From a virus (Duplodnaviria > Heunggongvirae > Uroviricota > Caudoviricetes): a stretch of DNA of 39,725 nucleotides. The notes under the pieces are model-generated. The model made no database searches. It worked only from the letters and a program-made list of their open reading frames with translations, and was not told the DNA's origin. The DNA is taken from the IMG/VR virus record IMGVR_UViG_638341086_000010. One strand, given 5' to 3'. Shown piece by piece: positions 10,116 through 30,365 of this stretch; the first letter of the stretch is position 1, and each line of letters starts with the position of its first letter. Position numbers and translations under genes: made by a program.

Positions 10116-10814
10116 TTACTGCGAAAGTTTGTTAATGGAAAGGAAGCCGCCAAAGTTGCCGACGTTATTGCGGAACTTACAACCGCTCAGGCATTTGCTG
10201 CATTTATCCTTCGTGATATCGGACGTTGGCTGGTCATATTCATCCGCGACCGCCGGACCGTGATAACCGCACTCACCGCCGCGATAGGTCCAGGTGCAGG
10301 TGTTGGCCAGCATGATACGTCCCGGAAAAACAGCGCCGTCCGTTTCCGTCGGCGTGGACAGTACAAAGGAGGCACTGACCGCGCTCAGTTCGCTGCACTG
10401 CTCAATGCGCCAGCGGCTGATCACCTCCTGCTCCGGATCGGCGTCACTGTTTCCGTTGACGAAGTTCACCGCATCCAGAAAACGGGCGTAAACCTTACGC
10501 CGGACCACCGTTCCGCCGACCAGACTCTGCAGATCTTCCGCCATCCCGGTGACCATACCGTACAGGTTAGAAACCGTCAGCGTGGGGCGCGTACTGGTGC
10601 CTTTGCCATTCAGTTCAAAACCACTCCCCTGAATGGGATACGGCTGATACTGTCGCCCCTGCCAGGTGACCGGCTCACCTTTTTCGTTCTGCTCATTACA
10701 GAAAAAATAACGTTCTCCACCGACCTCTGTCAGATCGATTTCCCAGAGCACCACGCTGGCCGACTGCTCCGCACGGGTGCATTCATTCAGTGTTTCCTGC
10801 CGGATATCCTGCAT
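10116..10814 (-). CDS. L: Tail tip assembly protein L, 232 aa
   Basis: Translation MQDIRQETLNECTRAEQSASVVLWEIDLTEVGGERYFF... matches lambda L as recalled; C-terminal Cys cluster present. Confidence 0.93.
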   Translation of the reverse strand: MQDIRQETLNECTRAEQSASVVLWEIDLTEVGGERYFFCNEQNEKGEPVTWQGRQYQPYPIQGSGFELNGKGTSTRPTLTVSNLYGMVTGMAEDLQSLVGGTVVRRKVYARFLDAVNFVNGNSDADPEQEVISRWRIEQCSELSAVSASFVLSTPTETDGAVFPGRIMLANTCTWTYRGGECGYHGPAVADEYDQPTSDITKDKCSKCLSGCKFRNNVGNFGGFLSINKLSQ

Positions 10815-27235: not shown

Positions 27236-27787
27236 CTACTTTATCTCATAAACTGGTGTTATCTCAGCGGTTGCGATTTTATTAGCATTAAGCATATAAC
27301 CAACTAACGCTCCGCTGGAGTTAGAATCTACAGGAATCTTTTCAGTTTTTAGAGCCCATACTTTAAACTGGTAATGATGTGGTTTATCTCCTTTAGGAGG
27401 ACATGCGCCACCAAACCCAGCATAGCCAAAATCATTTCGGCCTTGAACAGCACCAGTCGGCAGTTTTGTTCCATCACGTCTCCCTGCATCAACGGGCAAA
27501 TATGTTATTGTTGCTGGAATATTAACAACAGTCCAATGCCACCAACCACTGCCTGTAGGTGCATCTGGATCATATACAGTTACGGCAAAGCTTTTGGTAC
27601 CTTCAGGAACACCAGACCAGGTTAATGAGGGCGATGTATTACCACCTTCACACCCAAATCCAGAAAAGACATGAGACGTTGTAAGTTGCTCTCCTGTTTT
27701 TATTTCATTACTAGTGACCTGAAATGCTGCAGCCTGCGCAGAAAATGTTATGAATGCCAATACAGTTGAAACGATAAGTGTTTTCAT
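27236..27787 (-). CDS. ybcL: Secreted PEBP/RKIP-family protein, 183 aa, YbcL-like
   Basis: N-terminal signal peptide MKTLIVSTVLAFITFSAQAAA followed by PEBP-like motifs (…YDPDAP… …GxHHY…); matches DLP12 YbcL as recalled. Confidence 0.8.
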   Translation of the reverse strand: MKTLIVSTVLAFITFSAQAAAFQVTSNEIKTGEQLTTSHVFSGFGCEGGNTSPSLTWSGVPEGTKSFAVTVYDPDAPTGSGWWHWTVVNIPATITYLPVDAGRRDGTKLPTGAVQGRNDFGYAGFGGACPPKGDKPHHYQFKVWALKTEKIPVDSNSSGALVGYMLNANKIATAEITPVYEIK

Positions 27788-28003
27788 AAAAACCTCTTTG
27801 TTATGACCTATCGTTATTTTATTTGATATTCCTTTATCTCATTATGCATAAAGGCGCAATGTTTATGCAAAAGCAATCACAATTGTACCCCCAACCCAAT
27901 TATTTGCCACAATATACACAAAGCACATTGATACTATCTAAAAACTCTGCTTTATTATTAGTAATACCTACGAAAGTCGGTGTTATTTTTTAACCTACCA
28001 TTC

Positions 28004-28053
28004 AAAATACGTGACATACACCATTTTGCTCATAATAATTTGTCACGTATTTT
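28004..28053. repeat. 13-bp perfect inverted repeat AAAATACGTGACA ... TGTCACGTATTTT with 24-bp spacer in the ybcK-ybcL intergenic region
   Basis: Read directly from sequence, in an AT-rich roughly 460-bp intergenic region upstream of ybcL. Function unknown (operator or recombinase site). Confidence 0.4.
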
Positions 28054-28251
28054 CAGTATTTGAATCTGCGACCAAGAGTTCTCACCTAACAAATGATTAA
28101 GATTGTATAGCTCATTTACTACCCCAATACAGCCGTACAAAACTCGCTTGTGGGAGCAAACAAAGTAATTACCCATTAAGTTTCGTCAAAGATAATTAAT
28201 TCTGTCTTGCACTTTATCACCATAGCATAACTTAAAATCCGAGATCATTAT

Positions 28252-29778
28252 TTAGAAATAAATCTCACCATCAACCATATATTTGAGAGCACTTATCGCC
28301 TGCTGGGCGTATATTACTTTCATTAAAGGATAGTGTTTAAAAACAATGCCATTCATAAAATAGATATCACAGGTTTTATTATCCGTATTAATTATGATTT
28401 TTTCGAATGTTTTATAGGCAAGTGTACGGCATAACTCTCGTCCATTTTTACTGGTTAAGTCAATAGCATAAAAATCACTGACTGAATTTACACCTTTACT
28501 CTTCAAAGTTTTCAATGATACCGAAGCCCTTCGTAATTCCTTATCTAATAGTCTTATTTTCTCTGCTATAGCGGTAACTTCAGGCGCGACAGACAATGCA
28601 ACGATTAAATTATTAATTTTCATCTGAAGCTCAATAATTTTTAACTCTAAAGTTTCATTAGCATCTTTCTTGTTTTCAACTGGTTGAATTTTGCTACAAT
28701 TAAAAAGCAATTCATTAATGATATTATAATCAACCAAATCTCTTTTTATTGATGGCCTGTCACATCGATGTAATCTTCTCATCGGACAAACATAATAGCC
28801 ATGCAAACTTCCAGATACCGCATGAACAATCATGGTATTACCACAAGCCTCACACTTCATAACTGTTCGAAGTAGATTTATTAGCATAGGATTCTTGCTA
28901 CTATTGCTAATACCAAAAGGTGCCAACCGAATTTCCTGTACAGCGTAAAACAAATCATCTGATATAACTCTGGGATAATAGCCAGCGATTTCACTTATCC
29001 CTTTCCCTCTTGCACGATATGAAGGTACGCATATACCTATCAGAGCTTTATTCGCTAATAATTTTTCAATTACAGAAGGTCCCCATGCACTTTCTTTTCC
29101 TGAGAAATTCTTTACAGCATGATCATTTAAATACTTGGCTATTGCATTCAATGAGCGCCTTTCCATCCTGAGTTTAAAAATTAGCTCAATAGTTTTCACC
29201 CTGTCGGGGTCTGGAACAAAAGCCGTTCTTTTGTCATCTAAGGAGAGCCATCTCGGACAAGACGCCGTCATAATCGTACCTGATTCCATTGCATCCTGCC
29301 GTTTTTTCTTCCATGATAATTTAACCCTACTTGACTTTATCTCGCTTTCTTCATTTGCCCTTTGTGCTATAAGTATGGCTTTTATTAATGAATATGGCTC
29401 ATTCAAAGAGTCAATATTATAGACTGTATTGTCGCAAAGAGTTATAACATCAATACCGTGATTCAAAATCAATTTCAGACGTTCAATCGCTTCACCGACT
29501 TTTTCTCTTGAAAGTCTGTCCAGACTTTCAACTAACAATGTAGTTCCTGGCAATATATAACCATGCTCTATAGCATCTAAAAATTCCGAAAAAGCTCCTG
29601 ATTGTGCATGCTTTCCTTTGAATGCACTTAATCCTAAATCTTCATATGTTATGGTATCAAGATAATAATCACTATTTACCTTTAACCATTCAGCAATAAG
29701 TCTTCTCTGTCGGTTTAATGAGTCACCAGACATCTGACCTGGTGATGAAAATCGCATATATGCTATGGCTTTTTTCAT
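28252..29778 (-). CDS. ybcK: Large serine recombinase, 508 aa, YbcK-like
   Basis: N-terminal resolvase-type catalytic domain (MKKAIAYMRFSSPGQ…) followed by a long recombinase extension with Cys-rich motif (CEACG…C…C), typical of large serine recombinases; matches DLP12 YbcK as recalled. The gene is markedly AT-rich. Confidence 0.85.
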   Translation of the reverse strand: MKKAIAYMRFSSPGQMSGDSLNRQRRLIAEWLKVNSDYYLDTITYEDLGLSAFKGKHAQSGAFSEFLDAIEHGYILPGTTLLVESLDRLSREKVGEAIERLKLILNHGIDVITLCDNTVYNIDSLNEPYSLIKAILIAQRANEESEIKSSRVKLSWKKKRQDAMESGTIMTASCPRWLSLDDKRTAFVPDPDRVKTIELIFKLRMERRSLNAIAKYLNDHAVKNFSGKESAWGPSVIEKLLANKALIGICVPSYRARGKGISEIAGYYPRVISDDLFYAVQEIRLAPFGISNSSKNPMLINLLRTVMKCEACGNTMIVHAVSGSLHGYYVCPMRRLHRCDRPSIKRDLVDYNIINELLFNCSKIQPVENKKDANETLELKIIELQMKINNLIVALSVAPEVTAIAEKIRLLDKELRRASVSLKTLKSKGVNSVSDFYAIDLTSKNGRELCRTLAYKTFEKIIINTDNKTCDIYFMNGIVFKHYPLMKVIYAQQAISALKYMVDGEIYF

Positions 29779-30032
29779 GGTGACACCTGCTAACGTATGC
29801 TTTTATAAACCTTAGTGGTGGGATATAATTTTTGTTTAATTTTTATTTAAAAAGACAATTAAGGTCACATTATCTTGAATATACAACAATAATCGTATTG
29901 CAATTTTCTTACGCCATAATCTTGAAAGCACAAAAGAATACATAAAAAATAAAGACATTAACAAAAAGCATAAAACGAGGCTCATATAAATATAAGAGCC
30001 TCCATATTTTAGTCGTTTAGAAACAAATTATT

Positions 30033-30365
30033 TTAATGTGGTGTGCTTCGTGACAATAAATTAATAACCAACACACCGGCACAAATCAACATCATGCCTA
30101 TAATGGCTGGCAGGTCCAGCCGTTGGCCGAAAAATCCCCATGACAGTAAACTAATCAGGACAATACCGACTCCTGACCAGATAGCATAAGCAATCCCTGT
30201 AGGAATATAAGCCAGCGTCTGAGCTAATAACCAGAATGATGCACAATAACAAATAATTGTACCAACAGATGGCCATAACCGTGTAAAACCTTCTGAAAAC
30301 TTCATTAAGGTTGTACCAATGACCTCTGCAAGTATTGCACCACCAAGATAAATATAAGGGTTCAT
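30033..30365 (-). CDS. emrE: Small multidrug resistance (SMR) efflux transporter EmrE, 110 aa
   Basis: From MNPYIYLGGAILAEVIGTTLMKFSEGFTRLWPSVG the translation matches E. coli EmrE as recalled (four TM helices, conserved Glu14); internal ATG at 30365 chosen over the ORF-track start. Confidence 0.9.
   Translation of the reverse strand: MNPYIYLGGAILAEVIGTTLMKFSEGFTRLWPSVGTIICYCASFWLLAQTLAYIPTGIAYAIWSGVGIVLISLLSWGFFGQRLDLPAIIGMMLICAGVLVINLLSRSTPH

Follow-up and report, generated by a model that had tools for sequence, protein, structure and literature searches.

A perfect 13-bp inverted repeat lies in the spacer between ybcK and ybcL of a DLP12-type prophage of E. coli. This dyad is real, statistically unusual, unannotated and lineage-specific, and it is most simply an ordinary hairpin or terminator, or a neutral palindrome. 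Its predicted fold and its position lead us to prefer, tentatively, a weak terminator or 3' hairpin that would close the ybcK unit, with an AT-rich stem and a short U tract. A selectively neutral quasi-palindrome is a serious, if on balance unlikely, rival to this reading. Sites for the neighboring recombinase, the neighboring AraC-type regulator or some other protein are less probable still, as we discuss below.

The dyad and its genetic setting

The window, by which we mean the whole 39.7-kb stretch of DNA analyzed here, is a DLP12-type lambdoid E. coli prophage that reads on the reverse strand, with the minus-strand gene order ren, emrE (30033-30365), ylcJ (29836-29985), ybcK, ybcL and ybcM. 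The features closest to the dyad are:

28252-29778, minus strand: ybcK, large serine recombinase of 508 aa with Resolvase, Recombinase and Zn_ribbon_recom domains
28041-28053: right dyad arm, TGTCACGTATTTT on the plus strand; AAAAUACGUGACA is the 5' arm of the sense RNA
28017-28040: dyad spacer or loop, 24 nt, lacking dyad symmetry
28004-28016: left dyad arm, AAAATACGTGACA on the plus strand; 3' arm of the minus-strand (sense) RNA, ending UAUUUU
27236-27787, minus strand: ybcL, PEBP family, leading the ybcLM operon
26429-27226, minus strand: ybcM, AraC-type regulator

Both catalytic motifs of YbcK, YMRFSS and ESLDRLSR, are present. The PADLOC defense models gave no match to YbcK, YbcL, YbcM or YlcJ, and a sequence search of the PDB with YbcK gave none.

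The initial annotation had described a perfect 13-bp inverted repeat with a 24-bp gap, unlikely to arise by chance, in an AT-rich, non-coding ybcK-ybcL spacer of about 460 bp, and this description holds in each respect. The spacer measures 464 bp (27788-28251) and has 32.8% G+C, against 51.8% for the whole window. The 13-mer at 28004-28016 on the plus strand is followed, after a gap of 24 nt, by its exact reverse complement at 28041-28053, and the sense-strand dyad starts 198 nt past the ybcK stop codon. Further copies of the 13-mer, which the annotation proposed to look for, are absent from the window: it holds exactly two, the arms themselves (28004-28016, plus; 28041-28053, minus), together with three matches at two mismatches. 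All 13 positions of the arms are symmetric, and the symmetry ends there: the bases next to them are C facing C, and of the 12 position pairs in the inner 24 bp, 3 are symmetric. Of 5,000 dinucleotide-shuffled versions of the spacer, 0.14% hold a perfect inverted repeat that is 13 bp or longer and has a gap of 3-60 bp; repeats of this class arise in 2.7% of whole-window shuffles (n = 300). One further perfect spaced repeat of at least 13 bp is found in the window besides the dyad, at 24074-24133 in a lambda-type cos region.

The dyad corresponds to NC_000913.3 570,627-570,676 in K-12 MG1655, within unannotated spacer. A 48-aa open reading frame (28030-28176, minus strand) overlaps it and is called "hypothetical" in three phage records; it belongs to no Pfam family and has no homologue but itself among 5.8 billion proteins, and we treat it as spurious rather than as a gene. 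The best sigma-70-like match in the spacer, GTGACA-17-AATAAT (10/12) at 28011-28039 on the plus strand, lies inside the dyad, antisense and facing ybcK. It is probably a spurious promoter of the kind typical of AT-rich, H-NS-bound DNA.

Elsewhere in this prophage copy, an IS3-family element at 25057-26363 (a 108-aa HTH_Tnp_1 open reading frame and a 296-aa rve open reading frame, with the end sequence TGAACCGCCCCGGGTTTCC) stands in place of about 5.3 kb that is kept in the RM14723 prophage, which is otherwise 99-100% identical. The replaced stretch carries iss, the lysis genes, ompC/nmpC, quuD, rusA, ninE and ybcN; the copy in the window is therefore without Q and lysis genes.

Distribution of the dyad and remodeling of the emrE-ybcL junction

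Of 5,426 complete E. coli genomes, 677 carry a single copy of the ybcK-ybcL spacer, nearly always at 99% identity or more, with nothing annotated beneath these copies. The 141 bp around the dyad are at least 97.9% identical in all 674 carrier genomes, and every one of these copies spans at least 80% of the 141-bp query. Seven of the 464 positions vary among the five most divergent spacers sampled, and none of the seven is in the dyad. The dyad is intact in 39 of 39 viral contigs in a flank-anchored, unbiased sample, and the same 50 bp are found in all 39 evaluable viral contigs and in all five sampled genomes. Conservation and covariation are uninformative here because the lineage that carries the dyad is too young. 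A distant blastn search of phages and plasmids with segment 27940-28215 returned identical E. coli copies only, and for the dyad-bearing segment of about 200 bp (~27980-28180) the phage and plasmid collections contain no relative. When the arm pattern was relaxed and searched against 2.9 million viral contigs, 39 DLP12-type loci and five unrelated hairpins were recovered, the latter at about chance level. In the sequence collections covered, the dyad is thus confined to one nearly clonal lineage of E. coli prophages.

Comparison with related loci places the dyad in an inserted segment:

27943-30030, minus strand: ylcJ-ybcK segment and 3' flank with the dyad, 2,088 bp, absent from the chromosomal emrE-ybcL-ybcM islet

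The chromosome of ETEC1749 carries a fliE-emrE-ybcL-ybcM islet with an emrE-ybcL spacer of 168 bp. Blastn comparison of this islet with the window gives junctions at 30031 and 27942, and the window therefore carries a 2,088-bp insertion, 27943-30030. The dyad is 61-110 bp inside its ybcL-proximal end; neither terminal repeats nor a target duplication were found at the ends of the insertion. The short, dyad-free emrE-ybcL arrangement occurs in 2,631 of the 5,426 E. coli genomes. It is also seen in E. albertii (YbcM 82% identical), where emrE directly precedes ybcL and there is no dyad. In Plesiomonas, ybcLM follows a tRNA-Ser gene, again with no dyad. The E. albertii junction (L045, 4203-4236) has about 100 bp of filler with a canonical terminator at the place where DLP12 has the ybcK insertion, so that the emrE-ybcL junction has been remodeled at least three times.

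Phage 4A7 encodes a YbcK that is 97% identical, and its homology to the window fades 40-70 bp past the stop codon, with no dyad beyond; a canonical sense-strand terminator is found 324 nt past the ybcK stop. Between ybcK and ybcN, an oppositely oriented esterase gene replaces ybcLM in this phage (L002, 6567-8184). The sequence that follows ybcK is therefore a slot for exchangeable cargo, bounded in the window at about 28180-28211 and 26397. On this comparison of sequences, the dyad belongs to neither neighboring gene. Its absence from homologous loci, which the initial annotation had named, along with a lack of effect on expression of the flanking genes, as what would count against its reading, is what these loci show.

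Two independent IS insertions were noted in other copies of the region. One copy (L023) departs from the window at its position 10745 (window equivalent 28089), 36 bp from the dyad. This break in homology is no real boundary, only an insertion that we take, by our own reading of the end sequences, to be an IS5 end followed by IS1. A separate 1.3-kb insertion lies within ybcL of another copy (L026, 11172-12504; window equivalent 27323-27327).

This distribution bears on the possibility that the dyad is a neutral mutational quasi-palindrome with no selected function, formed, for example, by template-switch "correction" of an imperfect repeat or left behind by recombination, in horizontally acquired DNA that is AT-rich and bound by H-NS. 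Its restriction to a single, almost clonal lineage (674-677 of 5,426 genomes, with 97.9% identity or more in the sequence around the dyad) is as expected on this reading, as are the lack of relatives of the ~27980-28180 segment in phages, in plasmids or through the 48-aa open reading frame, and the absence of the dyad from every related ybcK or ybcLM locus. The poor terminator features described below point the same way. The rarity of such a repeat in shuffled spacers (0.14%) weighs against neutrality, although a template-switch origin would evade that statistic; so does the placement of the dyad exactly where comparator loci carry a terminator. We judge the neutral reading unlikely, yet well worth keeping in view.

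Candidate DNA-binding proteins

The initial annotation had suggested that the dyad could be an operator for the adjacent AraC-type regulator, YbcM. Two mapped features of the ybcL upstream region bear directly on this suggestion:

27882-27910, minus strand: ybcLM sigma-70 promoter GTGGCA-17-TACAAT, transcriptionally downstream of the dyad
27855-27888, minus strand: YbcM footprint, the operator mapped by ChIP-exo; it overlaps the -10 box and is 116 bp from the dyad

As a rule, sites of the AraC family lie close to the promoter and do not take the form of widely spaced perfect inverted repeats. The promoter was identified by genomic SELEX (PMC3946193). The strongest YbcM site in ChIP-exo, with a signal/noise of 357, was reported at 570015-570048 (PMC8464067, supplementary file 5). 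The csrB entry of that dataset shows its numbering to be that of NC_000913.2, for which the local shift is +777; the footprint is therefore at NC_000913.3 570,792-570,825, which is 27855-27888 in the window. No YbcM peak is listed at the dyad (28004-28053). In ETEC1749, E. albertii and the 2,631 E. coli genomes, the conserved block upstream of ybcL stops at about 27942-27978 and does not reach the dyad; the block shared by ETEC1749 and E. albertii contains the footprint but not the dyad. The ybcLM loci of ETEC1749, the 2,631 E. coli genomes, E. albertii and Plesiomonas are all without the dyad, and the arm motif was not found above background beside YbcK orthologues or YbcM homologues. Proximity alone speaks for a YbcM operator at the dyad. 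With the footprint 116 bp away on the ybcLM promoter, this reading is refuted by published data, and we regard it as extremely improbable. The same evidence delimits the ybcLM control region, with promoter and YbcM footprint falling within a conserved 155 bp.

A conserved stretch at 27842-27872, overlapped by the YbcM footprint, reads TTTGCATAAAC ... CATTGCGCC ... TATGCATAAT and is common to ETEC1749 and E. albertii. At the equivalent place in Plesiomonas, GCATGATA occurs twice, 25 bp from start to start.

A second suggestion was a binding site for the large serine recombinase; the dyad would then be a DNA substrate, or an accessory site, of the orphan enzyme YbcK. The attP sites of phiC31 and Bxb1 are the layout with which the geometry of the dyad is to be compared. 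With A118 included, these attP sites share with the dyad a length of about 50 bp, perfect outer inverted repeats and an adjacent gene encoding Resolvase, Recombinase and zinc-ribbon domains. The dyad spans 50 bp overall (13 + 24 + 13), with its arms where the motifs for the zinc-ribbon domain would lie, and it is about 200 bp from an apparently intact recombinase gene, in which the catalytic serine and DRLSR are present. It differs from attP in having no inner symmetry, no co-inheritance with the recombinase, no attL/attR derivatives and no partner site. Characterized attP half-sites have partial symmetry up to the crossover, whereas the inner 24 bp of the dyad are asymmetric (3/12). The 97%-identical ybcK of phage 4A7 is not followed by a dyad, and no comparable dyad or arm motif accompanies a 91%-identical variant or the scanned orthologues of 52-61% identity in nin regions and at prophage ends. 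A second or partner site is missing from the 39.7-kb window, the 674 genome copies include none split in the manner of attL and attR, and the dyad is at neither end of the 2,088-bp ybcK insertion. The recombinase-site suggestion is thus not supported: the dyad is not inherited together with ybcK, its inner half-sites lack symmetry, and no partner or split copy is found. We consider it quite improbable.

Orthologues of YbcK at 40-61% identity are found across Enterobacterales, among other genera in Atlantibacter, Yersinia, Erwinia, Pantoea, Citrobacter and Kluyvera. Those examined in context (52-61% identical) are solitary genes: two (L061, L062) are in lambdoid nin regions, and three (L049, beside ssrA; L051; L053) follow tail-fibre genes at prophage ends. 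The catalytic motifs are intact in the family members examined. Inverted repeats downstream of six YbcK-family genes are ordinary terminators and one LexA box only. The latter is a LexA-box-like palindrome, TATACTGTA-N6-TACAGTATA (L062, 2141-2164), directly upstream of the dinI that follows the YbcK orthologue.

The arms might also be bound as a pair by a different protein, encoded by the host or by the phage. That such geometry occurs as protein sites is indicated by the second perfect spaced repeat of the window, a 16-bp inverted repeat with a 25-bp gap, AGAAAGGAAACGACAG ... CTGTCGTTTCCTTTCT, at 24074-24133, upstream of nohD/nu1. The region is 99.6% identical to the cos region of phage lambda/DE3, and we take the arms to be the cosB R2 and R1 sites of the terminase small subunit, gpNu1. 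Identification of this repeat as lambda tR' was rejected on its position in cos, upstream of nu1, and a repeat in cos is not usable as a terminator precedent. It shares with the dyad a perfect inverted repeat and a similar spacing (16/25 compared with 13/24). CosB is, however, a conserved packaging site beside nu1, common to many lambdoid phages, whereas the dyad is without relatives or a known binding protein. Given the cos repeat, paired protein sites and an RNA hairpin cannot be told apart by geometry alone, and a protein outside the two neighbors is therefore kept at low probability. Against it, no protein suggests itself as a candidate; beyond the two arms, the window holds no exact copy of the 13-mer and three matches at two mismatches; in the papers covered, the published sites linked to ybcK or ybcL (PhoB, sigma-54, RpoD and RpoS SELEX, YbcM ChIP-exo) are elsewhere; and the relaxed arm search of 2.9 million viral contigs returned five unrelated hairpins, at about chance level. 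We hold such a protein to be very unlikely.

The dyad as a possible RNA hairpin at the end of the ybcK unit

The remaining suggestion of the initial annotation, the stem of a structured RNA, fits best as a simple hairpin or weak terminator; membership of a known RNA family is not borne out, since the Rfam scan of the spacer gave chance-level matches only (E at least 1.4, far under gathering scores). The predicted structure is:

27997-28058, minus strand: full predicted sense hairpin, the 13-bp stem plus a weak 5-bp base (28054-28058 with 27997-28001)

The sense-strand dyad folds at -18.9 kcal/mol (z = -4.3), and none of 200 shuffles folds as well. The antisense fold reaches -14.9 kcal/mol; the sense fold is stronger because the loop adds a G-U helix on that strand only, a predicted 6-bp G-U-rich helix with a 7-nt apical loop in the minus-strand RNA. 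When the whole 266-nt ybcK 3' region is folded, the hairpin is present in the MFE structure and is all that the centroid structure retains; the remainder folds like shuffles (z = -0.8). Thirteen perfect pairs followed by abrupt loss of symmetry make a stem-plus-loop pattern, unlike the extended half-sites of proteins.

Position and arm composition are consistent with termination. The dyad is co-oriented downstream of ybcK and precedes the ybcLM promoter, whose -35 box is 94 nt away; a terminator would be placed in such a position. The arms of the dyad have the AAAA...TTTT arrangement of A tract and U tract seen in intrinsic terminators. A consensus scan found no canonical terminator elsewhere in the ybcK-ybcL spacer. 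The SELEX promoter catalogue lists ybcK and ybcLM as separate units (PMC3946193). Support also comes from the canonical terminators at the equivalent position in E. albertii and phage 4A7. The former, TTGCCCGCA-loop-TGTGGGCAA followed by TTTTTT, is on the sense strand and lies about 20 nt ahead of the conserved block that precedes ybcL. By a d'Aubenton-Carafa-type score, which combines modern energies with the old coefficients and is uncalibrated and thus relative only, the best value for the dyad (-27) is in the same range as that for the hairpin after emrE (-31).

The hairpin would nevertheless be a poor terminator by the usual standard of a G+C-rich stem of about 5-14 bp with a loop of 3-8 nt. 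Only 4 of the 13 stem pairs are G-C, and without the weak inner helix the loop comprises all 24 nt. The U tract, UAUUUU at the end of the arm and then GAAUGG, is short beside canonical ones, with a T-score of 3.3 when the last four U are taken as the tail; with GAAU directly after UUUU, the consensus scan passes the dyad over, and a low efficiency is predicted. Neither the Term-seq tables (PMC7815308) nor the SMRT-Cappable-seq tables (PMC6131387) list a 3' end near K-12 570,676. Little weight attaches to this missing end, since H-NS and Rho silence ybcK and the gene is hardly expressed. The chromosomal emrE-ybcLM islet is without any hairpin, and a terminator is therefore not required here.

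Taken as a weak terminator or 3' hairpin, the dyad would act as minus-strand (sense) RNA, in which no other strong hairpin lies between the stop codon of ybcK and the promoter of ybcLM. Its role would be that of a weak factor-independent terminator, of a hairpin protecting the 3' end, or of both, at the end of the ybcK transcription unit. In this model ybcK would be a single-gene "moron" placed between emrE and ybcL, and the hairpin would separate its unit from the independently promoted, YbcM-controlled ybcLM operon. We infer that transcripts end or are stabilized at the dyad.

Two known systems invite comparison. Lambdoid "moron" terminators are likewise hairpins flanked by A and T tracts after a single inserted gene, and ybcK is in the delayed-early (nin) region, oriented with PR transcription, as such genes are. 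The dyad differs from them in its AT-rich stem, its 24-nt loop, its four U and its failure in the consensus scan. The lambda tI/sib retroregulator lies downstream of int. By analogy, the dyad may resemble it as a hairpin downstream of a recombinase gene whose base could be extended only in read-through transcripts; it differs in that the basal extension is merely five weak pairs. If the hairpin is sib-like, expression of ybcK may depend on termination versus read-through at the dyad.

The dyad matters little in itself, and the by-products of its analysis are more useful. At best, an unannotated weak terminator or 3' hairpin would be added to the DLP12 map of E. coli K-12, and the dyad would mark ybcK as a self-contained inserted gene. 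Among the by-products, ylcJ-ybcK is recognized as a 2,088-bp insertion into an emrE-ybcLM islet that is chromosomal in about half of E. coli strains. Another is that enzymes of the YbcK type are widespread as solitary prophage genes without a recognized target site.
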